A stretch of 64,000 bases of DNA, taken from contig CAYWRY010000001.1 of the NCBI GenBank assembly GCA_964460485.1, positions 21,761 through 85,760 on the forward strand, in the 5' to 3' direction. This document shows positions 168-41,126 of this stretch, one piece after another. A program made the position numbers and the translations under genes. The DNA is from an uncultured Spirochaetales bacterium. Lineage in GTDB: Bacteria > Myxococcota_A > UBA9160 > UBA6930. Positions within the stretch are counted from its first letter, which is position 1, and every line of letters starts with the position of its first letter. Below the pieces are notes generated by a model. That model saw only the letters and a program-made list of their open reading frames with translations. It searched no databases and was not told the DNA's origin.

Positions 168-1498
168 GGCAACGCTCGCGCGAGGAAGCCGTCGACGAAC
201 GCGCCGAGCCCGGGTTCGCGCGTCTCCGCGTACTCGTAGCGCGCGCGCACCACCGGCAGGCGCAGGCCGAGCAGCGCGGCGAGGTCGATGGGCGTGCCGG
301 CCACGATCGCGTCGGCGGGCGCGGCGTTCAGCGTGGCGGCGAGGGCGGCGCGCTGCGCGGCGTTGTAGCCCAGCGCCGGCAGCACGGGCCCGAGGTGCGG
401 GTAGCGCGCGAGCTCGGCCGCGAGCTCCGGGGGAGCGAACGGGCGCGCGTCTACGATCTCTCTCGCGCCCGCGCGCACCGCCGCCACGTAGCCGGCGCCG
501 TACGGCATGCCGCCGTGGGTGAGCGTCGGGCCGTCGTCCACCACCACCACGCGCTTGCCGCGCACGAGCGCGTCGTCGGCCAACGCGACGGGCGAGGCGC
601 CGCGCACGCGCGGCACGTGCGGTGCGATCGCCGCGAGCGCGGCTTCGACGCGCGCCACGCTCTCCGCCGGCGCCGCGTCGGACTTCGCCACGACGAACAC
701 GTCCGCCATCCGCGCCACCGCCTCGCCCGGATGGTGCGTGTCGACGTCGCCCGGACGCAGCGCGTCGGCGAGCACGACGTGGAGGCCGGGGCGCACGAAG
801 GGGAAGTCGTTGTTCCCACCGTCCCAGAGCAGGACGTCGGCCTCTGCTTCCGCCGCGCTCACGATCGCGCGGTAGTCGACGCCGGCGAACACCGTGCAAC
901 CGCGCTCCAGGTACGGCTCGTACTCCTCGCGCTCCTCGATCGTCGCCGCGGCGACGTCGAGGTCGGAGCGCATCGCGAATCGCTGGACGCGCTGCGCGGC
1001 GAGGTCGCCGTAGGGCATCGGGTGGCGCAGCGCGGCGACGCGCAGTCCGCGCACGCGTAGCCGAGCGGCGATCCAGCGCGCGACCTGGCTCTTGCCGCAG
1101 CCCGTGCGCACCGCCGAGACGGCGATCACCGGGCGCGCGGAGCGCAGCATGGTGCGCGGGCCCGCGAGCGAGAAGTCACAGCCGGCGGCGAGCGCGCGCG
1201 AGGCGAGGTGCATCACGTGAGCGTGGGTCACGTCGCTGTAGGCGAACACCACTTCGTGCGCCCCGTGCTTTGCACACAGCGCCTCCAGCGCGGACTCGGG
1301 CTCGATCGGCACCCCGTTCGGATAGAGCGAACCCGCCAGCGAGGCGGGAAAGGTCCGTCCGGCGATGCCCTCGATCTGCGCCGCCGTGAACGCGACGACC
1401 TCCACCGCCGGATCGTCGCGCCAGAGCGTCAGAAAGTCGTGGAAGTCGCGGCCCGCAGCGCCGAGCACCACGAGGCGCCGCCGCTGGCGGGCGCTCAC
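164..1498 (-). CDS. COG2403-type predicted GTPase / cyclic 2,3-diphosphoglycerate synthetase-like protein
   Basis: C-terminal 444 aa of track ORF 164..2470. GTG at 1496-1498 overlaps the upstream stop (GTGA). Translation VVLGAAGRDFHDF...AVRTGCGKSQVARW...LLWDGGNNDFPF is protein-like and matches this family from memory. The rest of the track ORF is Arg/Pro junk. Confidence 0.75.
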   Translation of the reverse strand: MSARQRRRLVVLGAAGRDFHDFLTLWRDDPAVEVVAFTAAQIEGIAGRTFPASLAGSLYPNGVPIEPESALEALCAKHGAHEVVFAYSDVTHAHVMHLASRALAAGCDFSLAGPRTMLRSARPVIAVSAVRTGCGKSQVARWIAARLRVRGLRVAALRHPMPYGDLAAQRVQRFAMRSDLDVAAATIEEREEYEPYLERGCTVFAGVDYRAIVSAAEAEADVLLWDGGNNDFPFVRPGLHVVLADALRPGDVDTHHPGEAVARMADVFVVAKSDAAPAESVARVEAALAAIAPHVPRVRGASPVALADDALVRGKRVVVVDDGPTLTHGGMPYGAGYVAAVRAGAREIVDARPFAPPELAAELARYPHLGPVLPALGYNAAQRAALAATLNAAPADAIVAGTPIDLAALLGLRLPVVRARYEYAETREPGLGAFVDGFLARALP

Positions 1499-2298
1499 GG
1501 CTTCGCGCGCTCTCCGCCCGCGCAGCGCACGCAGGCGGTGCTGCCCGGCAGCGCGCGCAGGCGCGCGACCGGGATGCGGTCGCCGCAGTGGTCGCAGATG
1601 CCGAAGCGCCCCTGCGCCGCGCGCTCGAGGGCGTGGTCGAGGGCCGCGAGCCGCCGCGCCTTGGCAGCCTCGAGCACTTCCGAGAGCTGCTCGTCGGTGC
1701 GCAGCGACGCGGCGTCGGCCTGGTCGCCGGGCTCGCGCCGCTCCTCCGTGCGCCGGCGGTCGCGTTCCGCGAACTGCGCCAGCTCCTTGGCCACCGCGTC
1801 GCGCTCGCGGCGCAGCTCTTTCAGCAGCGTCTGCTCGGGGGGGACCGGCGCGCGCTCCGTGCTGAGACGCTCCGTCCAGAGATGCGTGGCGAGCGCGCGC
1901 AGCGCGTCGGTCTCGGAGAGGATGCCCGCCAGTCGCCCCGCGCCGTCGACGATCGGCAGGCAGCCGATGCGCCGGTCCGCCATGCGCTCGGCGGCGTGCT
2001 GGAGGGAATCGTCGGGGCCGAGCGTGTCGGGCGCGTGAGTCATCAGGTCCGCAACCGTCCAGTTCGCTTCGGCGTCGCGGGCCTCGACGTCGATCGGGCC
2101 GCGCAGGCTCGCGCCGACGGGCAGGGCGCTGCGCAGGTCGTCGAGCGCGAGCACGCCGACCACGCGGCGGTCTCCGTCGACGACCGGGAGGTGGCGGACG
2201 CCGTGGCGAATCATGCGCTCGTGAGCGGCGAGCGCCGACTCGTCGGCGGTGGCGGTGACGGGGTCCCCGCTCATCCAGCTCTTGATGGCGTCGTGCAT
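1495..2298 (-). CDS. CBS-pair domain fused to a DksA/TraR C4 zinc-finger domain
   Basis: C-terminal 267 aa of ORF 1495..3717, starting MHDAIKSW with GGAGGA 6 nt upstream. The N-terminal half is two CBS-like repeats (HLPVVDGDRRVVGVLALDDL, CLPIVDGAGRLAGILSETD). The C-terminal half has a coiled coil, the tip motif DQADAA (DxxDxA) and CDHCGDRIPVARLRALPGSTACVRC (CxxC-N17-CxxC). Confidence 0.85.
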   Translation of the reverse strand: MHDAIKSWMSGDPVTATADESALAAHERMIRHGVRHLPVVDGDRRVVGVLALDDLRSALPVGASLRGPIDVEARDAEANWTVADLMTHAPDTLGPDDSLQHAAERMADRRIGCLPIVDGAGRLAGILSETDALRALATHLWTERLSTERAPVPPEQTLLKELRRERDAVAKELAQFAERDRRRTEERREPGDQADAASLRTDEQLSEVLEAAKARRLAALDHALERAAQGRFGICDHCGDRIPVARLRALPGSTACVRCAGGERAKP

Positions 2299-2333
2299 CG
2301 GGCTTCCTCCTTGCGCGTCGGCGGAAGGCCAGG

Positions 2334-2349
2334 TGCAAGCGTAGTGCCG
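2334..2349 (-). promoter_or_regulatory. sigma-54 (-24/-12) promoter candidate for the CBS-DksA operon
   Basis: Minus strand reads CGGCACTACGCTTGCA (GGCAC-N5-TTGCA, GG to GC spacing exact). There are 36 nt between the GC and the start codon at 2298, and that stretch contains the GGAGGA RBS. Confidence 0.7.
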
Positions 2350-2453
2350 CACGCGGCTCCTTCCGCACACGTTGCGTCCGGACTCGTCCCGGCGGGTCTG
2401 GGTCGCAGCGACCCACCCCGGGCGCGCCGCGGCATGGGCGCGTCGGGGTTCGG

Positions 2454-2469
2454 TGGCATCCTGCGTGCA
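2454..2469 (+). promoter_or_regulatory. sigma-54 promoter candidate for the K+ channel gene
   Basis: TGGCATCCTGCGTGCA with correct GG-N10-GC spacing. Only 16 nt lie between the GC and the ATG at 2485, so the predicted leader is very short. Divergent from the 2334..2349 site. Confidence 0.6.
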
Positions 2470-2484
2470 CGAGGTGCCGCCCAC

Positions 2485-3492
2485 ATGACGACGACCCCGG
2501 CGCAGCGCATCGCCTTCGCAGCCGCCGCGCTCGCGTTGATCGCGGCGTTCGGAACGGCGGGCTACGTGCTGCTCGAGGGGTGGCCGGTCCTCGACGCGCT
2601 CTACATGACGGTGACCACGATGACGACCGTGGGCTACCGCGAGGTCCATCCGCTGAGCCGCGCGGGTCTGGTCTTCACGATGGTGCTGATCGTCGTCGGG
2701 GTGGGCGGAGCCCTCTACCTGCTCACGCAGGTGGCGGAGCTCATCCTGGACCGCCGCCTGCGCGCGGGCCTGCGAAGGAGAGTCATGGAGCGCTCGATCG
2801 GAAGGCTGTCGGGGCACATCGTGGTGTGCGGGTACGGACGCTTCGGCCGCGTCGTGGCCGACGAGCTGCGCCGCGCCGGGGAGCCGGTCGTGGTCGTGGA
2901 CCTCTCGACCGCGCTCGAAGACGAGCTGGCGACGACAGGCCTGCCGTTCGTGATCGGCACGGCGGCGTCCGACGAGACCCTCGAGCGCGCCGGGGTCGCG
3001 CGCGCTCGAGCGATCGTGGTGGCGACCTCCTCGGACGCGGACAACGTCTTCATCACGCTCGCTGCGCGCGAGCTGAATCCCGGGATCCAGATCTACGCGC
3101 GGGGTGAGAGCGACGCCGCTGCCCGGCGCCTCGAGCGCGCGGGCGCATGCTCGGTGACCTCCCCCTTCCGCATCGGCGGCCAGCGCGTGGCGGCCTCGAT
3201 CCTGCGACCTTCCGTGGTCGATTTCCTCGAGATCGGGCGTCCCCGGCAAGGCGGCGAGGTGGACCTCGAGGAGGTGCGCGTCGCGGCGGGGTCCGCCCTC
3301 GTCGGGCGCGCAGTTCGCGATCTGGAAGCCGAGGCAAGCGGCGTGCGGGTCGTGGCCGTCAAGCGCGCCGGCGAGTCGATGTTGCTGGCGCCGGTCGCCG
3401 AAACGACCATCGGCGCCGGCGACCACGTCGTCGTGATCGGGTCGCGGGCGCCGCTGCTCAAGCTCGCGGAGTCTGCTGCGACCGGCCGCTGA
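2485..3492 (+). CDS. two-TM K+-channel-like protein with RCK (TrkA-N/TrkA-C) domains
   Basis: C-terminal 335 aa of ORF 1588..3492. Contains a pore helix and filter MTVTTMTTVGYRE, a Rossmann motif VVCGYGRFG and a TrkA-C-like tail. The filter is non-canonical: GYRE where GYGD is expected. Confidence 0.85.
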   Translation: MTTTPAQRIAFAAAALALIAAFGTAGYVLLEGWPVLDALYMTVTTMTTVGYREVHPLSRAGLVFTMVLIVVGVGGALYLLTQVAELILDRRLRAGLRRRVMERSIGRLSGHIVVCGYGRFGRVVADELRRAGEPVVVVDLSTALEDELATTGLPFVIGTAASDETLERAGVARARAIVVATSSDADNVFITLAARELNPGIQIYARGESDAAARRLERAGACSVTSPFRIGGQRVAASILRPSVVDFLEIGRPRQGGEVDLEEVRVAAGSALVGRAVRDLEAEASGVRVVAVKRAGESMLLAPVAETTIGAGDHVVVIGSRAPLLKLAESAATGR

Positions 3493-3580: not shown

Positions 3581-3596
3581 GGGCACGCCCTGTGCT
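3581..3596 (+). promoter_or_regulatory. sigma-54 promoter candidate for usp-mgtE
   Basis: GGGCACGCCCTGTGCT (GGCACG-N4-GTGC). There are 27 nt to the ATG at 3623, with GGAGGTG in between. Nearly identical to the 42852..42867 site. Confidence 0.6.
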
Positions 3597-5542: not shown

Positions 5543-6382
5543 TCAGTGCGGCTGCGACGGCGGGGGCGCGCCGCGGCGGCCCGGCAGGTACTCGACGCCC
5601 GGCTGGCGCCGCACGGGCTGCGGATAGAGGGCCATCAGCTGAAGGACCTCTGCCGGCATCTCGGTGGAGACGCTGAGGCCGAGCTTGCGCGCCTCGTCCA
5701 CGGTGACGGGGTAGTCGTGCGTCCAGCGGCCCTCGGACAGATCGCTCGCGAGCGTGTCGCGCACGTGCTCGGGGAGCCGGTCCGCGGTGATGTCCTGAAT
5801 CGTCTGGCGGAGCTGTTTCAGCGCCATCTCGCTCTGGTCGGCGAGGATCAGGGTCTCGTCGTCGACCTCGGCGATCGGTTTGCGCTCGACGGCGCGCAGG
5901 ATCGAGGCCGCCGGCGCGCCGCCGACCTGCGGATCCGCCGGGCCGAGCACCGCGTGCTCGCTCATCACGATCTCGTCGGCGGCGAGCGCGATCAGCGTGC
6001 CGCCCGACATCGCGTAGTGCGGCACGAACACGGTCACCTTGCCGGGCCGCCGCGCCAGCGCGCGCGCGATCTGCGTCGAGGCCAGCGCGAGGCCGCCGGG
6101 CGTGTGCAGGACGAGATCGATGGGCAGCGCGGGATCGGTGAGATGGATCGCGCGCAGGATCTGCTCCGAGTCGTCCACGTCGATGTACCGGAAGACCGGA
6201 ATGCCGAGGAAGCTCATCGTCTCCTGGCGGTGGACGAGCGAAATGACGCGCGAGCCGCGCGCCTGCTCGATGCGGCCGATCAGGCGCGCGCGCATCGCCT
6301 CGAGCAGGCGTTGCCGGATCATCGGCTGCACCGCGAGCGCCAGGAAAACCAGCCAGATCCACTCGCTCACGCGGCTCTCCAT
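5543..6382 (-). CDS. SDH-family Clp-fold serine protease (periplasmic/membrane-anchored, PF01972-like)
   Basis: C-terminal 279 aa of ORF 5543..6772, starting MESRVSEWIWLVFLALAV (N-terminal TM). Contains LVLHTPGGLALAS and HYAMSGGTLIALAADEIVM, typical of this family from memory. Confidence 0.75.
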   Translation of the reverse strand: MESRVSEWIWLVFLALAVQPMIRQRLLEAMRARLIGRIEQARGSRVISLVHRQETMSFLGIPVFRYIDVDDSEQILRAIHLTDPALPIDLVLHTPGGLALASTQIARALARRPGKVTVFVPHYAMSGGTLIALAADEIVMSEHAVLGPADPQVGGAPAASILRAVERKPIAEVDDETLILADQSEMALKQLRQTIQDITADRLPEHVRDTLASDLSEGRWTHDYPVTVDEARKLGLSVSTEMPAEVLQLMALYPQPVRRQPGVEYLPGRRGAPPPSQPH

Positions 6383-6414
6383 CGCACCGAACCGAGCGTC
6401 GCAGGGCACCAGAT

Positions 6415-6430
6415 AGCAAGCCGCATACCG
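6415..6430 (-). promoter_or_regulatory. sigma-54 promoter candidate for the protease gene
   Basis: Minus strand reads CGGTATGCGGCTTGCT. The spacing is exact and the -12 TTGCT is perfect, but the -24 is GGTAT. There are 33 nt to the start at 6382. Almost identical to the acs site at 22541..22556. Confidence 0.5.
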
Positions 6431-6562
6431 CGCGCGGGCCGCCGGCGCCGCAAGATCGCACAGAAGCCGGGGCCTCGCGCCTCGCATCGCGCCGCGTTGA
6501 GGCACAGGTCCGCAGCCCGCACGGGCCGCGGCAGCCATCGTGTCCGGAGCCAGTGCCGCGCG

Positions 6563-6578
6563 CGGCATGCGCGTTGCA
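6563..6578 (+). promoter_or_regulatory. sigma-54 promoter candidate for the hsp20-CxxCH-groEL-hpf operon
   Basis: CGGCATGCGCGTTGCA (GGCAT-N5-TTGCA). There are 37 nt to the ATG at 6615, with AGGAGG at 6602-6607. Confidence 0.7.
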
Positions 6579-6614
6579 CAGCTTCTCGACGCCACCTTCA
6601 CAGGAGGAATGACG

Positions 6615-7076
6615 ATGGCGGAGAAAGAGAAGCGGGCGATCGCCCGCTGGAACCCGTTCGAGGATCTGGGCTGGTGGTTCCCGAGTCTCTCGCGCACGAG
6701 CGAGGGCGACCTGCTCGAAGACTTCTGGGGCCGTCGCGGCCCCGGGCAGTTTTCGCCGGCGACCGACATCACCGAGGACGACGGCCACTACGTCGTGAGC
6801 GCCGAGCTGCCGGGCATGAAACGCAGCGACATCAGCGTCGACGTCCACGACGGCGTGCTCACGATCCGCGGCGAGAAGAAGAGTGAACGCGAGGAGAAGA
6901 GCGAGAAGCGCCGCTACGTGGAGCGCAGCTTCGGCGCGTTCAGCCGCGCGTTCACCCTGCCGAGCGACGCCGACGAGAGCAAGGTCGAGGCGACCTTCAA
7001 GGATGGCGTCCTCACCGTCACGCTTGCGAAGTCCGAGGCCCGCAAACCTCGCGTCATCGACGTGAAGGCGTCGTGA
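6615..7076 (+). CDS. Hsp20/alpha-crystallin small heat-shock protein
   Basis: ORF 6540..7076. The ATG at 6615 sits 7 nt after AGGAGG. Alpha-crystallin core: DITEDDGHYVVSAELPGMKRSDISVDVHDGVLTIRGEKK...FSRAFTLPSDADESKVEATFKDGVLTVTL. Paralog at 42906..43361. Confidence 0.9.
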   Translation: MAEKEKRAIARWNPFEDLGWWFPSLSRTSEGDLLEDFWGRRGPGQFSPATDITEDDGHYVVSAELPGMKRSDISVDVHDGVLTIRGEKKSEREEKSEKRRYVERSFGAFSRAFTLPSDADESKVEATFKDGVLTVTLAKSEARKPRVIDVKAS

Positions 7077-8266
7077 TGCGATACGCAGCGGGAGTCGCGC
7101 TGGCGACTGGGCTCTCGTTGCTCTCGTGGGCCGCGCGCGCGGAAGCTCCGTCCGATCCGGATGCCGCCGCGCGCGCGGCCATGCAGCGCGTCTACGCGGC
7201 GATGACCGTGCTGTTGCCGGCCTCGGCGAAGGACGGCGGCTTCTCGGATCCCGCGCAGCGCGAGCAGCTGCGCGGCGCGTTCGAGACGCTGCGGGGGGCG
7301 GCCGTCGACCTGCGCGCCCACGGCACGAGCCGCGACGCGAGCTTCGGCCTGCACGCGAGCAACCTCGCCGACGACGCGCTGAACGCCAGCAGCGCCTTCG
7401 CCCTCGGCGACGAGGAGGAGGCGCGCTTCGCCTTCACGTTGCTGACCCAGCGCTGTACCGACTGCCACTCGCGGCTTCCCGACGTACAGGACTCGCCGCT
7501 CGCCGCGCGGCTCGTGCAGCTTCCGGAGGTGAAGGCGCTCGCTCCGCTCGAGCGCGCGCGCGTCGACGTCGCGCTGCGGCGCTTCGACGAGGCGCTCGCC
7601 ACCTGGGAGCAGGCATTTTCCGAGCCGGCGATCCCGCCCGCGGAGCATGAGCTGGCGGGCACGCTGGCCGACTATCTGACGATCGCGCTGCGCGTGAAGG
7701 CCGACGCGCAGCGCCCGCAGGCGGTGCTGCGCAAGTTGGCGAATCGTCCGGACGCGCCGGGCTATCTGCGCAACCGGTTGGTGGCGTGGGCGGTCTCGCT
7801 CGCCCGCGTCGGAGCGGAGCTCGCCCAGTCGACGCCTTCCATCCAGCACGCCCGCGAGTGGGCGATGATGGCGCGCAACCTGTCGGACCTGCCGACCGCC
7901 CGCGACGGGTTGGTCTACGACCTGGCGGCGTCGAGCCTCTTGCTGCGCTGGATCGACGCGCGCGAGAAGGGCAGTCGGGCGCCGCAAGACCTCGAGCTGG
8001 CGACCGCGTACTACGAGCTGGCGGTGATCGAAGACCGCACGGCGTTCTCGATCTGGGCGCCGCGCACGGACGTGTACATGGAGGCGGCGGTGCGCGCCGC
8101 GCCCTCGGGCCCGCTCGCGCGCCGTGCCTACGCGCGGGTCGAGGAGCAGCTCATGACCGAGCTGGGCGCGACCAGCCCCGACGGCTTGCCCGAGCCCGAA
8201 CGCGCGCGCCTCGCGGCGCTGCGCGCGCTGGTCGAGGGCGCCCACGCCGGCGGCAAGGCGAAGTAG
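7073..8266 (+). CDS. secreted helical protein with a single CxxCH motif (function unknown)
   Basis: Full ORF, 397 aa. ATGA overlap with the hsp20 stop. Signal peptide [25 protein letters not shown] and a CTDCH motif. Alignable along its whole length to 30882..32117 (CAGCH). Confidence 0.75.
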
Positions 8267-8310
8267 CCGCCGCACGAAGCTCGGAAGCGAGCACCGGAGG
8301 AGAGTTCGCC

Positions 8311-9933
8311 ATGTCGCACACGCAGATTCTGTTCCGCGACCAGGCCCGCGCGCGGATCCTCGCCGGCGCCGCGCTGCTGGCCGACGCCGTGCGGCCGACG
8401 CTCGGTCCGAAAAGCCGCTGCGTGCTGATCGACAAGAAGTGGGGCACGCCACTGGTCTGCGACGACGGCGTCACGATCGCGAAGGAGATCAACCTGAAAG
8501 ATCCCGAGGAGAACCTCGGCGTGCGCATGCTGCGCCAGGCTTCGGTGCGCACCGGCGACGCGGTCGGCGACGGCACGACCACCTCGACGCTGCTCGCCCA
8601 CGCGATCTTCGCGGAGGGGCTGCGCAACGTGGTCGCGGGGGCGAGCGCCATCGACCTGAAGCGCGGGCTCGAGCGCGGGCTCGCGGCGGCGGTGGAGGCG
8701 CTGCGGGGGCTCTCGAAGCCGGTGAGCAGCGCGAGGGAGAAGGCGCAGGTGGCGACCATCTCCGCCCACAACAATCCGGCGATCGGGAACCTCGTCGCGG
8801 AGGCGCTCGAGAAGGTGGGCGGCGAGGGCATCGTCACCGTCGAGGAGGCGAAGGGCACCGAGACGACGCTCGAGGTCGTCGAGGGCATGCAGTTCGATCG
8901 CGGCTTCCTGTCGCCCTACTTCGTCACGGATCCCCAGAAGCTCGAGGCGGTGCTGGTCGACCCGCTGATCCTGCTCCACGACAAGCGCATCGCGACCATG
9001 AAGGACCTGGTGCCGCTGCTCGAGCGCGTGGTGCGCAACGGCCGCTCGCTCTTGATCGTCGCCGAAGAGGTCGAAGGCGAGGCGCTCGCGACGCTGGTGG
9101 TGAACAAGCTGCGCGGCGCGCTGAGCTGCCTCGCCGTGAAGGCGCCCGGCTTCGGCGACCGCCGCAAGGCGATGCTCCAGGACATGGCGATCCTGACGGG
9201 CGGCAAGGTGATCTCCGACGAGGTCGGCCTCAAGCTCGAGAACGTGGATCTCAGCGACCTCGGCTCCGCCAAGAAGGTGGTGGCCAACCAAGAGGCCACC
9301 ACGCTGATCGACGGCGCGGGCGCGAAGGAGCTGATCGAGGCGCGCTGCACGGAGCTGCGCAAGCAGATCGACGAGTCGAAGTCGGACTACGACAAGGAGA
9401 AGCTGCAAGAGCGGCTCGCGAAGCTCGCGGGCGGCGTGGCGGTGATTCGCGTGGGCGCTCCGTCGGAATCCGAGATGAAGAACCGCAAGGACGCGTTCGA
9501 CGACGCGATCGCCTCCACGAAGGCCGCCATCGCCGAAGGCATCGTGCCGGGCGGCGGCCTGCCGCTGCTGCGCATCGCGGAGGCGGTGCTGCGCGAGGAG
9601 AAGAAGTGCGAGGGCGACGAGGCGACCGGACTGCGCATCCTGCGCAGCGCACTGGAAGCGCCCGCGCGCCAGATCGCGCTCAACTCCGGTGCGGACGCCG
9701 GCGTGGTCGTGGACCGTCTGCGCAGCGGCAGCGGCGCGTTCGGCTTCGACGCGCGCCACGGGGACTACGTCGATCTCGTGGAGGCGGGCATCATCGACCC
9801 GACCAAGGTCGTGCGCATCGCGCTGGAGAACGCGGTCTCGGTGGCGGGTACGCTGCTGCTGGCGGAAGCCACGCTCACCGAAATCGAGGACGACAAGAAG
9901 GAAGGGCAGCCCGAGCTGCCGGCGGGGATGTGA
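8311..9933 (+). CDS. groEL: chaperonin GroEL (divergent, no adjacent groES)
   Basis: C-terminal 540 aa of ORF 7786..9933. GGAGGAG lies upstream of the ATG at 8311. Contains [30 protein letters not shown] and [15 protein letters not shown]. The C-terminus ends [10 protein letters not shown] without a GGM repeat. Confidence 0.9.
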
Positions 9934-9937
9934 CGCC

Positions 9938-10471
9938 ATGGAGATTCACTGGCGCAACGCGAAAGAGCTCTCGGGCGACGTGCGCGCGAAGGCGGAGGAG
10001 CAGCTCGCGAAGCTCGCCGAGCATCATCGCGACATGATCGACCTGACCGTCGACGTGGAGCGCAAGAGCGCGCATCACAAGCTGGGCAAACGCCGCGTCG
10101 AGATCCGTTGCCAGGCGCGCGGGACGAACCTTGTCGCGAACGGCGAGGCCGACGAGCTCGGGCTCGCGCTGCGCGACGCTCTGCGCACCTTCCGGCGCGA
10201 AGTCGAGAAGCTGCGGGACCGGCGCCGCGACGCGCGCGCCGAGCGCCCGGCCGAGCCGCCGCTGCGCGGCGTGATCGATCGCGTGGAGCGCGCGGGCGGC
10301 TTCGGCTTCCTCATCACCGACGCCGGCGAGCGCGTCTACTTCCACCGCAACGCGGTGGGCGGCGGGCTCGACTTCGATCGCCTCGAGGGCGGCGAGACCG
10401 TGGCCTTGAACTACGAAGCCGGCGGCGAGGGCCTGCAAGCCACGTTCGTGCGCTCGCTCGAGCCGGGCTGA
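9938..10471 (+). CDS. HPF/RaiA-like ribosome-associated domain fused to a cold-shock (CSD) domain
   Basis: C-terminal 177 aa of ORF 9689..10471. The ATG is 5 nt after the groEL stop. N-terminal MEIHWRN..VRAKAEEQLAKLAEHHRDMIDLTVDVE...VEIRCQARGTNLVANGEADELGLALRDALRTFRREVEKLRD follows the HPF/YfiA pattern. C-terminal GVIDRVERAGGFGFLITDAGERVYFHRNAV...GETVALNYEAGGEGLQATFV follows the CspA pattern. Confidence 0.75.
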   Translation: MEIHWRNAKELSGDVRAKAEEQLAKLAEHHRDMIDLTVDVERKSAHHKLGKRRVEIRCQARGTNLVANGEADELGLALRDALRTFRREVEKLRDRRRDARAERPAEPPLRGVIDRVERAGGFGFLITDAGERVYFHRNAVGGGLDFDRLEGGETVALNYEAGGEGLQATFVRSLEPG

Positions 10472-10707
10472 GCGCGGCGCTCTGGAGTCCCGTGGGCTGC
10501 GCCACCCGGTCACGCGGCGACCGTCTGCTCCGGCACCAGCCGAATGCGGCGCTCGTCGACCATGCGCGCGAGCACGGCGGCGAAGCCGCGGAGCGCGGGC
10601 CCGTCACCGAGTGGGCGAGCGGTTCGGCCGCGTTCGCGCGGCACACCGTCGTCGCCTCGCGCGTGCCCGCGACGATCGAGGACGTGCGCGCGCGCGGAGG
10701 GCCTGGC

Positions 10708-11262
10708 GTGAGGGGCGGAGTCGTGACGGCTGCCCTGTGCGCAATGCTGGCCTGCGCGGCGCCGCTCGGTCCCGTGCGCGAGGCAGCGGCCCGCGAGCGC
10801 GGCGCCGCGGCGATAGCGCCGTTCAAGCAGCGCCTGCTCGCCGAGCTCACCGCGGCGCTCGCGAGCGGCGGCGCCGAGAACGCGCTCGACGTGTGCCGTC
10901 TGCGCGCGCCGGCGCTCGCGCGCGAGGTGAGCACTGCGGCGGCGCGCGTGGGGCGCACGAGCCACAAGCTGCGCAATCCCGACAACGCGCCGCCCGCGTG
11001 GGCGGCGCCGCTGCTCGCGAGTTACGTGGCGGGCGAGCGCACGAACGAGTCGAGCGTCGTTCCGCTGCGCCGCGGCGGCGCCGGCTACGTCGAGCCGATC
11101 TTCACGGGTCCGCTCTGCCTGACTTGTCACGGCGAGCAAATCGCGCCGTCGCTCAGGGCGAAGCTGAGCGCGCTCTATCCCGAGGATCGCGCCACCGGCT
11201 TCCGCGCGGGAGAGCTGCGCGGGCTCTTCTGGGTCGAGCTCGCCGCGGAGGACACGCCCTGA
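10708..11262 (+). CDS. DUF3365 (Tll0287-like) c-type-heme periplasmic domain protein
   Basis: ORF 10108..11262. GTG at 10708 sits 7 nt after GGAGG, but the start is uncertain. Signal-like VVTAALCAMLACAAP, a CLTCHG heme-c motif and GELRGLFWVEL. Confidence 0.65.
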   Translation: MRGGVVTAALCAMLACAAPLGPVREAAARERGAAAIAPFKQRLLAELTAALASGGAENALDVCRLRAPALAREVSTAAARVGRTSHKLRNPDNAPPAWAAPLLASYVAGERTNESSVVPLRRGGAGYVEPIFTGPLCLTCHGEQIAPSLRAKLSALYPEDRATGFRAGELRGLFWVELAAEDTP

Positions 11263-11313
11263 TTCTCGCTCGGCGTGTGCGGCCGGAGCAGCCGCGTGCC
11301 CGCCGCGAAGCTC

Positions 11314-11784
11314 TCACTCGCGCTTCGCCAGCCGCACGATCTTCGGGAGCGCGAGCCTCCTCCAGTCGGCGAAGCGCATGCGCACCGCTTCGTCGTGGGT
11401 GCCGCCGTTGAAGGTGATCTGCTCGTCTTGCTCGAGCGCCTCGCTCGCGTAGACGGGAAGGTCGTAGAGCACGCCGAAAGGCGGCGCGGCGCCCGGCTCG
11501 CAGTCGGGGCAGAGCGTCTTCAGGTCCGTCTCGGTCGCGACGCGGACCTGTTTCGCGCCGAGCGCCTTGCGCAGCTTCGAGGGCGCCAGGTGCTCGTTCG
11601 CCGGCATCACCGCCATCGCCGGCTTGCCGTCGATCCACACGAACACCGTCTTCGCGAACGCTTGCAGCGGCGTGAAGGTGTCGAGCGCCGTCTTCGCGGC
11701 GTGGAAGTCGCGGCGGTGATGGATCTGCGTGTAGTCGACACCCGCGGCGTCGAGCAGCTGCTGGAGTCGGCCGAGTCCGGACAT
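11314..11784 (-). CDS. YbaK/EbsC-like aminoacyl-tRNA deacylase domain protein
   Basis: C-terminal 156 aa of ORF 11314..11973. MSGLGRLQQLLDAAGVDYTQIHH...AKTVFVWIDGKPAMAVMPANEHLAPSKLRKALGA...FNGGTHDEAVRM, with GGAGG upstream. Confidence 0.65.
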   Translation of the reverse strand: MSGLGRLQQLLDAAGVDYTQIHHRRDFHAAKTALDTFTPLQAFAKTVFVWIDGKPAMAVMPANEHLAPSKLRKALGAKQVRVATETDLKTLCPDCEPGAAPPFGVLYDLPVYASEALEQDEQITFNGGTHDEAVRMRFADWRRLALPKIVRLAKRE

Positions 11785-12946: not shown

Positions 12947-12962
12947 AGCAAGGCCCGTTCCA
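12947..12962 (-). promoter_or_regulatory. sigma-54 promoter candidate for the dehydrogenase-ybaK-like operon
   Basis: Minus strand reads TGGAACGGGCCTTGCT with exact spacing and a perfect -12 TTGCT. There are 28 nt to the GTG at 12919. Confidence 0.55.
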
Positions 12963-13105: not shown

Positions 13106-13121
13106 CGGCACGTCGCTTGCT
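13106..13121 (+). promoter_or_regulatory. sigma-54 promoter candidate for the APH/AAA kinase gene
   Basis: CGGCACGTCGCTTGCT, a near-consensus GGCACG-N4-TTGCT. There are 28 nt to the ATG at 13149, with GGGAGG in between. Confidence 0.7.
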
Positions 13122-38798: not shown

Positions 38799-38814
38799 TG
38801 GCATGAAGCCTGCT
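38799..38814 (+). promoter_or_regulatory. sigma-54 promoter candidate for the activator gene itself
   Basis: TGGCATGAAGCCTGCT. There are 15 nt between the GC and the ATG at 38829, so the leader is predicted to be very short. Implies autoregulation. Confidence 0.6.
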
Positions 38815-38828
38815 CCAACTAGAACCGC

Positions 38829-40238
38829 ATGCGACACACGGCTCAGATCCTCATCGTCGACGATGACCGCGCCATGCGCGAAATGCTTGCCTCGCTGTTC
38901 AAGGAGCGCGGGCTCTGGGTGGAAGAGGCGAGCTCCGCTCGCGCTGCACTCGAGCTCGCGGCGGAGCGCGAGTTCGACGTGGTGCTCTCCGACATCCGCA
39001 TGCCCGGCCTCTCGGGCATCGAGCTGGTGGGACAGCTGCGCCGGCTGCGTCCCAACACGCCGGTCGTGCTGATGACGGCATTCGGCACGATCGACTCGGC
39101 GGTCGAGGCGATGCGCGCGGGCGCCTTCGACTACATCACCAAGCCCTTCGAGCCGGAAGCGGTGAGCTTCGCCGTGGATCGCGCCATCGAGCGCGCGGCC
39201 CTGGCGCGCGAGAACGAGACGCTGCGGCGCGCGGTGCAGACCACCGGCGAGCTGGGCGAGTTGATCGGCTCGAGCGCTGCGATGCGCGACATCATCGCGC
39301 TGATCCAGCGCGTGGGTCACAGCCGCGCGAGCGTGCTGATCACGGGCGAGAGCGGCACGGGAAAGGAGGTGATCGCGCGGACGCTGCACTTCCACGGCGC
39401 GCGTCGCGAGATGCCGTTCGTGCCGATCAACTGCACGGCGATTCCCGAGGGCCTGCTCGAGAGCGAGCTGTTCGGTCACGTGCGCGGCGCCTTCACCGGC
39501 GCGCACACCAACAAGCGCGGCCTGTTCGAGAAGGCCAATGGCGGGACGCTGTTCCTCGACGAGGTCGGCGACATGGGCCTCGCGCTCCAGGGCAAGCTGC
39601 TGCGCGTGCTCCAGGATCGCGAGATCCGGCCGGTGGGCGGTACCCAGACGATCAAGGTGGACGTGCGCATCATCGCGGCCACCAACAAGGACCTGCCCGC
39701 CGAGATCGCCGCCGGGCGTTTCCGCGAGGACCTGTTCTACCGGCTGAACGTCGTGCCCATCCACGTCCCGCCCCTGCGCGAGCGCACCGACGACATCCCG
39801 GCGCTGGTGGAGGCCTTCCTGCGGCGCCACGGCGAGGGGCGCAAGCGCTTCGTCTCCGCCGAGGCGATGGCCGTGCTGCGCGCGCAGCCGTGGCGCGGCA
39901 ACGCCCGCGAGCTGGAGAACACGATCGAGCGCGCGATCGCGCTGACGGACGTGGAGACGCTGGGCCCCGCCGACATCCCGCTGCCGGCGAGCACCGGGGG
40001 TCCGCCCGCGACAGGAGCCTCCGCAGGAGCGCCGGTGGATCTCGACACCCTGCTGCGCGCTGCGGCGGCGCGCGGCACGAGCCTGCGCGACCTCGACGAG
40101 AAGTACACGGCCATCGTGCTCGCCCACACGGGGGGCAACAAGGTGCGCGCGTCGCAGATCCTCGGCATCGACCGGAAGACGCTCTACCGTCGCGCCGAGC
40201 GCCGCGCCCGCGAAGAGGGCGCGAGCGACGAGGAGTGA
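38829..40238 (+). CDS. sigma-54-dependent response regulator (NtrC family: REC-AAA+-HTH)
   Basis: Full ORF, 469 aa. REC domain ILIVDDD...SDIRMPG, Walker A GESGTGKE, the sigma-54 contact loop GAFTGA, FLDEVG and a C-terminal Fis-type HTH NKVRASQILGIDRKTLYRR. Confidence 0.92.
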   Translation: MRHTAQILIVDDDRAMREMLASLFKERGLWVEEASSARAALELAAEREFDVVLSDIRMPGLSGIELVGQLRRLRPNTPVVLMTAFGTIDSAVEAMRAGAFDYITKPFEPEAVSFAVDRAIERAALARENETLRRAVQTTGELGELIGSSAAMRDIIALIQRVGHSRASVLITGESGTGKEVIARTLHFHGARREMPFVPINCTAIPEGLLESELFGHVRGAFTGAHTNKRGLFEKANGGTLFLDEVGDMGLALQGKLLRVLQDREIRPVGGTQTIKVDVRIIAATNKDLPAEIAAGRFREDLFYRLNVVPIHVPPLRERTDDIPALVEAFLRRHGEGRKRFVSAEAMAVLRAQPWRGNARELENTIERAIALTDVETLGPADIPLPASTGGPPATGASAGAPVDLDTLLRAAAARGTSLRDLDEKYTAIVLAHTGGNKVRASQILGIDRKTLYRRAERRAREEGASDEE

Positions 40239-40241
40239 CGC

Positions 40242-41126
40242 GTGAAGAGCCCCCGCAAGATCCTGGTGGCGACCGACTTCTCCGCCGGCGCCGAGCGCGC
40301 GTTGGACACGGCGCTCGCGCTCGCCGCTCCAGCGAAGGGCGAAGTGCACGTGGTGCACGCGCTCGAGATCCCGCTGCCGATGTTCGAGCCCTACGCGGTC
40401 GCGCTTCCGCCGGAGCTGATCGGCGCCGCCCGCAAGACGGCGCAAGAGAAGCTCGCCGCGGCCGGCGAGAAGGTGCGCGCGCGCGGTCTCACCGGCACGA
40501 CCTTCCTCGGCGAGGTGCCGGCTTCGATGTGCGTCGCCGAGCGCGCCAAGGCAATCGGCGCGGATCTGGCGGTGATCGGCACCCACGGCCACACCGGCTT
40601 CAAGCGCTTCCTGCTCGGCAGCGTCGCGGAGCGCACGGTGAAGGAATCTCCGGTCTCGGTGCTCACGGTGAAGGGCGAGGGGCGCGCCGAGGCGCCCAAG
40701 ACGATCGTGATCGGCGTCGACTTCTCGAAGCACTCCCAGGAAGCCGTGGAGCTGGCCGCGGACTGGGCGCGGGCGTTCGGCGCGACTCTCTACCTGGTGC
40801 ACGGCCTCGAGCTGCGCATGCCGTTCGTCACTCCGTACGAGGTATCGGTGCCGGACGCGCTCATCGACGCCGCCTACGCGGAGGGCAAGAAGCGCCTCCA
40901 GGAGCTGGCCGGGAAGCTCACGGGCGTGAACGTGCGCACGGAGCTCGCGAGCGCACCCGCCCACGCGGCCCTCGACGGCGTGGCAGAACGCGTCCGCGCG
41001 GACTTGATCGTGACCGGCTCGCGCGGCCTCGGCGGCATCAAGCATGCGGTGCTCGGCAGCGTCGCGGAGCGCACGCTGCGCCACGCGCCGTGCAGCGTGC
41101 TCACGGTGAAGTCGCACATCGGGTGA
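40242..41126 (+). CDS. tandem universal stress protein (paralog of 3623..4507)
   Basis: Full ORF, 294 aa. GTG is 4 nt after the activator stop. Roughly 60% identical by eye to 3623..4507 and the same length. Confidence 0.9.
   Translation: MKSPRKILVATDFSAGAERALDTALALAAPAKGEVHVVHALEIPLPMFEPYAVALPPELIGAARKTAQEKLAAAGEKVRARGLTGTTFLGEVPASMCVAERAKAIGADLAVIGTHGHTGFKRFLLGSVAERTVKESPVSVLTVKGEGRAEAPKTIVIGVDFSKHSQEAVELAADWARAFGATLYLVHGLELRMPFVTPYEVSVPDALIDAAYAEGKKRLQELAGKLTGVNVRTELASAPAHAALDGVAERVRADLIVTGSRGLGGIKHAVLGSVAERTLRHAPCSVLTVKSHIG

Follow-up and report, generated by a model that had tools for sequence, protein, structure and literature searches.

Downstream of groEL in a 64,000-nucleotide (nt) stretch of contig CAYWRY010000001.1, from an uncultured bacterium placed in the Myxococcota, lies a gene, here called hpf-CSD, whose product joins an N-terminal ribosome hibernation domain of the HPF/YfiA (S30AE) type to a cold-shock domain (CSD) on the C-terminal side. 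"The window" below is the whole of this stretch. The gene probably encodes a ribosome hibernation factor of the HPFcold class, acting as the ribosome-bound structure from Coxiella burnetii suggests, and the unit of genes in which it sits is predicted to be under sigma-54-type control. The fusion class has already been published (Stuart et al. 2026; Chan et al. 2025), so the fusion itself is not new; what computation points to as new is the stress-operon setting, a predicted sigma-54-type promoter, and, at related loci, a linkage to RtcB, Archease, and RtcA.

Two domains joined by a short linker

The gene has 177 codons, beginning with an ATG 4 nt past the groEL stop codon (Table 1), and both halves of its product are recognized by profile models. 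PF02482 (Ribosomal_S30AE) matches residues 2-97 over positions 2-88 of its 88-position model, scoring 34.5 bits where the gathering cut-off is 23.7 (E 3.4e-8). PF00313 (CSD) matches residues 110-172 at 26.2 bits (gathering cut-off 27.0), which is significant by its E-value of 7.2e-6. An earlier note on this DNA had proposed these two domains and named the two models as a check; both halves are thus borne out. The TIGR00741 (yfiA) equivalog of NCBIfam gives 32.0 bits, under its cut-off of 40.9, and the NCBIfam CspE, CspA, and CspC models give 17.9, 17.2, and 11.9 bits on the fused CSD against cut-offs of 120-137. In the Pfam scan of the 177-residue protein, which otherwise returned a chance-level PDDEXK match, no dimerization domain was found, in keeping with the proposal that a cold-shock domain stands in its place; 100S formation by the known long-HPF route is therefore not expected.

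An AlphaFold2 model built from 64 homologs (mean predicted local distance difference test score 86.1) gives the same picture. In the N-terminal half, a strand (residues 2-6), a helix (13-27), three strands (33-40, 52-60, and 63-71), and a long second helix (74-102) follow exactly the beta-alpha-beta-beta-beta-alpha order of HPF/YfiA that had been read from the sequence; in the C-terminal half, five strands within residues 109-173 form the expected CspA-like oligonucleotide-binding (OB) fold. The sole low-confidence segment is residues 102-108, where helix alpha2 gives way to the first strand of the CSD. Here the earlier account needs correction: the RDRRRDARAER stretch taken for a basic linker is predicted to close helix alpha2, and the flexible linker proper is ERPAEPP.

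Foldseek comparisons place each half with its presumed family. By target template modeling (TM) score, the N-terminal half reaches 0.79-0.82 against E. coli HPF (2rql, 6h4n) and 0.74-0.83 across HPF/YfiA structures from E. coli, Vibrio, Thermus, mycobacteria, and chloroplasts; the C-terminal half reaches 0.82-0.83 against CspC, CspE, and CspA, and about 0.8 against CspB and the YB-1 cold-shock domain.

Table 1. Features of the hpf-CSD gene and the unit in which it lies (window coordinates).
Feature	Position	Strand	Basis
Sigma-54-type -24/-12 promoter-like element CGGCATGCGCGTTGCA	6563..6578	+	Ends 36 nt before hsp20 start codon; conserved in relatives
hsp20 (small heat-shock protein), first gene of unit	6615..7076	+	PF00011, 94.5 bits; AGGAGG 7 nt before ATG
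397-residue protein, signal peptide and CxxCH motif	7073..8266	+	No Pfam or NCBIfam match
groEL	8311..9933	+	TIGR02348, 722.7 bits against cut-off of 582
hpf-CSD, gene for 177-residue HPF-CSD fusion protein (probable HPFcold class)	9938..10471	+	Open reading frame and translation; PF02482 and PF00313; 250 homologs; best PDB relative 9t0z
N-terminal HPF/YfiA (S30AE) domain, residues 1-102, with long basic helix alpha2 at its end	9938..10243	+	PF02482; AlphaFold2; Foldseek; conserved basic residues
Pro-rich short interdomain linker ERPAEPP, residues 102-108	10241..10261	+	Low AlphaFold2 confidence; alignment to Coxiella HPFcold linker
C-terminal cold-shock (OB-fold) domain, residues 109-173, motifs GFGFL and VYFHRNAV	10262..10456	+	PF00313; AlphaFold2; Foldseek

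A conserved family in uncultured Myxococcota

A word-indexed search returned 250 homologs at E <= 1e-3, nearly all of them 175-180 residues long and most with both Pfam domains precomputed; the gene is therefore real and conserved in uncultured Myxococcota, and the same fusion does occur in related genomes, as had been suggested. Several homologs carry the Joint Genome Institute (JGI) label [quoted passage not shown] and the identical protein is present on six metagenomic contigs. Among species-representative genomes the family is limited to metagenome-assembled genomes labeled Myxococcota, Deltaproteobacteria, or similar bins (43-78% identity). Remoter full-length fusions are found in Planctomycetota, Omnitrophota, Oligoflexales, Chitinivibrionales, Ignavibacteriales, Fibrobacterota, Hyphomicrobiaceae, and Caulobacterales, and an exhaustive profile search yielded 727 cluster representatives at E <= 1e-10.

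Conservation extends over both domains. Family-invariant residues include W5, H46, H47, G123, F124, Y134, F135, H136, N138, Q167, and A168, with F124 and Y134 invariant across 64 members; the basic residues R16, R48, R61, R87, R93, and R96 of the N-domain are invariant or nearly so. MEIHW, HH(R/K)xG, IRCQARG, and VYFHRNAV are motifs of the clade's own. The profile search also brought in variants of other layouts (P0141, P0142, P0151, P0155, P0160, and P0166; P0152; P0165). Among these are stand-alone N-domain proteins of the myxobacterial type, 100-128 residues long with C-terminal tails of their own; a 74-residue stand-alone CSD of the same subtype as the fused one; and a 383-residue protein in which a Cys-rich extension precedes the HPF-CSD module. 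Judged by eye, that extension is zinc-ribbon-like and possibly NMD3-like.

Kinship with HPFcold and other hibernation factors

The factor named HPFcold is CBU_0020 of Coxiella burnetii, whose ribosome-bound structure is deposited as PDB 9T0Z/9TZE (Stuart et al., Nat Commun 2026;17:7049, PMC13392368; bioRxiv 10.1101/2025.11.08.686982). In this cryo-electron microscopy structure the S30AE domain occupies the 30S decoding center; a six-residue linker leads to the CSD at the mRNA exit side, where the anti-Shine-Dalgarno (anti-SD) 3' end of 16S rRNA is wrapped round the CSD, itself pincered by bS21 and contacted by uS7 (Stuart et al., PMC13392368). The ribosomes so bound are 70S monomers, not 100S dimers, and the fusion was reported from all proteobacterial classes, Deltaproteobacteria included, and several other phyla (Stuart et al., PMC13392368). 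A full-text literature search for the accessions PF02482 and PF00313 together returned the Stuart paper alone.

With phmmer, the best match of the window protein among all PDB sequences is the 183-residue "ribosome hibernation promoting factor" that forms chain 9 of 9T0Z/9TZE: residues 19-172 align with 27-179 of the 9t0z chain (E 7.3e-10), colinearly over both domains. The linker, at 6-7 residues, agrees with that of Coxiella HPFcold in length and position. The same alignment locates the named RNA-contact residues of the Coxiella protein, three of five being identical here. R123, which pairs with C1535, corresponds to R115; F132, which stacks on C1535, to F124; and Y142, which stacks on U1534, to Y134, the latter two invariant in the clade. 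K155, the helix 40 contact in the KLEVG motif, is conservatively changed to R148 in RLEGG, and R177, which bridges two rRNA segments, is replaced by F170.

Fusions from seven other phyla (Planctomycetota, Fibrobacterota, Oligoflexales, and others) bridge the two groups: their E-values are 1e-35 to 1e-22 against Coxiella HPFcold and 1e-17 to 1e-9 against the window protein. These fusions have VYFHRNAV in common with the myxobacterial clade and the ISCH and VKTHP motifs and a His-rich loop in common with Coxiella. 9T0Z was not among the Foldseek matches against the PDB (structure library to 8 April 2026), probably because the library ends before the date of the paper, 1 June 2026; the link to HPFcold is therefore one of sequence and not of fold comparison. 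Taken with the bridging fusions, the alignment suggests that the window protein is a divergent member of the HPFcold class and would share its mechanism.

The resemblance to CBU_0020 covers the PF02482-linker-PF00313 architecture and the overall size (183 against 177 residues). The settings differ: Coxiella is an intracellular pathogen, whereas the present clade comes from uncultured free-living Myxococcota, and the window gene lies in an hsp20-groEL unit behind a predicted sigma-54-type promoter. Chan et al. independently list HPF-Csp, HPF-SigE, and HPF-CBS chimeras that lack a dimerization domain and occupy variable, non-canonical loci (bioRxiv 10.1101/2025.11.04.686544). These too are HPFs fused to a stress-protein domain, but the survey has no mention of a myxobacterial context, a sigma-54 promoter, or RtcB linkage. 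Long HPFs (HPFlong; S. aureus, L. lactis 5myj) have the N-terminal S30AE domain, a two-domain layout, and a similar total length; their C-terminal domain is a dimerization domain, in contrast to the OB-fold CSD found here.

In E. coli, RaiA/YfiA and the short HPF that acts with RMF block the decoding center with an S30AE domain like the one seen here; RaiA gives 70S hibernation, and RMF occupies and protects the anti-SD region, as the HPFcold CSD does in cis (Stuart et al., PMC13392368). Short HPF and RMF are two proteins, whereas a factor of the hpf-CSD type would do both jobs in one polypeptide. Unlike RaiA, the window protein has no RaiA-type C-terminal tail, and it departs from the single-domain RaiA/YfiA/short HPF group (TIGR00741) in its extra 70-residue domain as well as its sub-cut-off score. 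Free CspA/CspB-family cold-shock proteins (Csps) share with its C-terminal half the OB fold, the GFGFL resembling ribonucleoprotein motif 1 (RNP1), and the His and aromatic residues of RNP2. They are, however, free proteins of 65-70 residues with KGFGFI as RNP1 and VFVHF as RNP2, where the fused domain keeps GFGFL and has VYFHR, and their conserved Trp position is Arg115 here.

Proposed mechanism and its alternatives

If the Coxiella structure is a guide, the N-terminal S30AE domain would sit in the 30S decoding center and block the tRNA and mRNA sites, and the linker of 6-7 residues would set the CSD at the mRNA exit side. There the aromatic and basic face of the CSD could clamp the anti-SD, which is the single-stranded tail at the 3' end of 16S rRNA; clamping would block initiation and shield the tail from RNases, leaving ribosomes parked as 70S monomers rather than 100S dimers. 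The sigma-54-type promoter predicted from the sequence would put the unit under an enhancer-binding activator (see "A chaperone unit behind a putative sigma-54-type promoter"), so that ribosome parking might be switched on with the chaperones under proteotoxic or dormancy stress. Neighboring genes have canonical AGGAGG/GGAGGA Shine-Dalgarno sequences, which implies a canonical anti-SD as well. The different mode of silencing that the earlier note suggested thus finds support by homology, through HPFcold on the 70S ribosome.

Several observations weigh against this proposal. Identity to Coxiella HPFcold is only about 30%; the bridging R177 has become F170, and R115 is only the majority residue in the clade. 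The CSD score lies 0.8 bit under Pfam's curated cut-off, and under the strict gathering-threshold filter of the published phylogeny the sequence would be borderline. Taken singly, neither domain shows a preference for Coxiella HPFcold over ordinary Csps or mycobacterial HPFs: among PDB sequences, the CSD alone matches Listeria CspLA best (E 2e-4; 9t0z, 1.4e-3) and the N-domain alone a mycobacterial HPF (E 0.058; 9t0z, 0.41), neither comparison being discriminating. Stand-alone N-domain proteins of the myxobacterial type speak against a simple common origin with Coxiella HPFcold, and the published view of the class itself allows for repeated independent fusions. Rfam and tRNA scans of the window gave no match, and 16S rRNA lies outside it. 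As for the promoter, sigma-54-like matches are frequent in this window of 73.5% G+C (16 found against 7.7 expected).

Some of these points would fit other roles. The protein might be ribosome-bound through its N-domain on the 30S while its CSD binds mRNA or other RNA and not the anti-SD, capturing or melting mRNA 5' regions as a tethered RNA chaperone or holding an mRNA store for post-stress recovery. We consider this unlikely. The CSD does keep the generic single-strand-binding residues of free Csps (RNP1 F122/F124, RNP2 Y134/H136) and, alone, scores slightly better against them than against Coxiella HPFcold, and the unconserved R177 points the same way; but the short linker keeps the CSD near the N-domain, as in Coxiella, all three residues that stack on or pair with U1534/C1535 are identical, and the published analysis of the family finds conservation concentrated at residues in contact with the anti-SD (Stuart et al., PMC13392368). 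Less likely again is that Myxococcota arrived at the fusion independently and convergently, by joining a CSD to a short HPF of their own lineage; such a CSD would dock elsewhere on the ribosome or dimerize ribosomes in a 100S-like manner. Repeated independent fusions are considered by Stuart et al., who leave room for dimers mediated by the CSD (PMC13392368), and both the stand-alone N-domain proteins (100-128 residues, with their own C-terminal tails) and the want of special affinity to Coxiella in domain-only searches would suit such an origin. Against it stand the colinear alignment over both domains, the equal position of the linker, and the intermediate sequences from other phyla that tie the Coxiella and myxobacterial groups together.

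A role away from the ribosome seems the most improbable of all. The protein would then be an RNA chaperone or antiterminator induced by stress, with an S30AE-like domain that has lost ribosome binding. The N-domain is divergent and the TIGR00741 score is below its cut-off (32 against 40.9), yet PF02482 is matched end to end and over its gathering score, the fold agrees with ribosome-bound HPF/YfiA structures, and basic residues in helices alpha1 and alpha2 hardly vary across the family. A hibernation factor of the HPFcold class, clamping the anti-SD, is accordingly the reading carried forward here.

A chaperone unit behind a putative sigma-54-type promoter

The genes ahead of hpf-CSD are those that the earlier note had named: hsp20 (PF00011), a gene whose product has a CxxCH motif as well as a signal peptide, and groEL (TIGR02348, 723 bits). 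Overlap of hsp20 with the next gene, followed by gaps of 44 nt and then the 4 nt between groEL and hpf-CSD, leads us to infer that the four are co-transcribed. The same four-gene order recurs in relatives L005 and L068 (72-80% identity); in L007 (69% identity) hsp20 lies directly upstream of hpf-CSD, without groEL. Divergence of groEL into a paralogue, suspected from a modest Pfam score, was rejected in view of the TIGR02348 score above cut-off. Its C-terminus reads ...PELPAGM and is not a Gly-Gly-Met repeat; there is no groES ahead of it, and the 44-nt gap (8267-8310) alone parts it from the gene before.

That preceding gene encodes the 397-residue protein, for which no Pfam or NCBIfam family match was found. 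It has an N-terminal signal peptide and a CxxCH heme-binding motif, and its position is kept in L005, L009, and L068. Apparently exported, it is encoded within a unit of cytosolic chaperones. A second CxxCH occurs in the next gene downstream of hpf-CSD, from 10492 (or about 10723) to 11262 (+), which is Tll0287-like (PF11845) with a lipoprotein-like signal sequence. The JGI start of this gene is 20 nt past the hpf-CSD stop; if it is right, the gene could extend the unit, and hpf-CSD would then not be its last cistron.

Promoters recognized by sigma-54 have the -24/-12 consensus TGGCACG-N4-TTGCW. CGGCATGCGCGTTGCA, ahead of hsp20, fits it with GG and GC in register, and the element is kept upstream of hsp20 in L005, L007, L009, and L068. 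The JGI start of hsp20, at 6567, would overlap the element; the start at 6615 is more likely, because AGGAGG stands 7 nt upstream of it and homologs begin there. Among distinct myxobacterial loci, 21 of 44 have comparable sites at most 300 nt upstream of hpf-CSD, mostly 40-95 nt from its start. As background, 3.9% of the 300-nt windows taken over these loci have such a site, and the reverse complement has one at 5 of the 44 (binomial P 2e-18). At several more loci the site stands ahead of the opening gene in a co-directional cluster; in L024, for example, a perfect TGGCACGCCGATTGCT comes before rtcB-archease-CBS/DksA-hpf. Conservation of this kind points to sigma-54 dependence of the unit.

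Other modes of control were also considered. No CIRCE/HrcA operator (TTAGCACTC-N9-GAGTGCTAA, with up to 3 mismatches) was found anywhere in the window, so HrcA control of groEL is not supported, and a sigma-70 promoter scan of 6000-11500 found no site. Terminator-like matches were set aside, as all were on the minus strand inside genes and were about as many as chance would give (4 against an expected 2.0).

Within the window, sigma-54-type matches lie at 2334-2349 (-), 3581-3596 (+), 6563-6578 (+), 12947-12962 (-), and 13106-13121 (+), each ending 26-36 nt before a gene start. The starts behind them belong to a CBS-DksA/TraR gene (2298, -), a tandem Usp gene (3623), hsp20 (6615), a glutamate dehydrogenase gene (12919, -), and an AAA_33/zeta-toxin-like gene (13149). 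Such an arrangement suggests a sigma-54 stress regulon island around hpf-CSD. An NtrC-type sigma-54 activator with receiver, AAA+ (with GAFTGA), and HTH_8 domains is encoded at 38829-40238; a sigma-54-like site ends 14 nt before its start, and a second tandem-Usp paralogue follows 4 nt after it (region 38799-41120, +). This activator is a candidate regulator of the island.

Recurrent neighbors and RNA repair

The surroundings of hpf-CSD were compared over 47 distinct myxobacterial loci, counting genes within 6 kb that were identified by tblastn with named neighbor proteins and by called genes with Pfam annotation. Clustering of six-frame open reading frames from the flanks was dropped on account of low-complexity artefacts of high G+C. 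The RNA ligase RtcB was found at 16 of the 47 loci, where about 0.15 would be expected given an assumed two copies per 8-Mb genome; its cofactor Archease was found at 11, the cyclase RtcA at 3, and at least one of the three at 19. CBS-pair proteins (16 loci), a CBS-DksA/TraR protein (11), GroEL (10), and Hsp20 (9) also recur. The loci with RtcB or Archease are L005, L014, L015, L018, L021, L023, L024, L033, L035, L037, L039, L044, L045, L047, L050, and L069, six of which (L021, L023, L024, L044, L047, and L069) have tight co-directional clusters of hpf-CSD with rtcB and/or archease; RtcA is at L030, L034, and L068. In the window itself a search for RtcB, Archease, and RtcA found none.

Two published observations bear on these neighbors. 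E. coli RtcB re-ligates the 16S 3' fragment cut off by MazF (Temmel et al. 2017, as summarized in PMC12186496), and Hib and Dri, hibernation factors of archaea, are built from CBS domains (Chan et al., 10.1101/2025.11.04.686544). The CBS-pair and CBS-DksA/TraR neighbors could themselves act on ribosomes, since Hib and Dri are made up of such domains. The window has its CBS-DksA/TraR gene at 1486-2298 (-); CBS neighbors in relatives include those at 2092-3123 and 6589-7395 of L007 and 7549-8588 of L068.

As a working hypothesis, the recurrent neighbors suggest a gene neighborhood of stress, dormancy, and RNA repair. A bolder version, possible but on balance doubtful, would make the Myxococcota HPFcold one arm of a sigma-54-controlled "protect-and-repair" ribosome regulon: the CSD would shield the 16S 3' tail, RtcB-Archease(-RtcA) would reseal tails that have been cut, and CBS-pair, CBS-DksA/TraR, Usp, Hsp20, and GroEL proteins would be co-induced by one enhancer-binding activator. 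If true, it would couple ribosome hibernation, rRNA repair, and proteostasis in a way not described before.

Significance

This divergent clade from free-living uncultured Myxococcota shows anti-SD contact residues surviving at about 30% identity to the Coxiella protein. It comes with a predicted regulatory picture, in which hpf-CSD is wired to chaperone genes and, phylum-wide, to RtcB/Archease repair genes, behind sigma-54-type promoters. If that picture is true, it would tell when and why cells choose 70S "cold" hibernation, and would link the way the 16S 3' end is protected to the way enzymes repair it.

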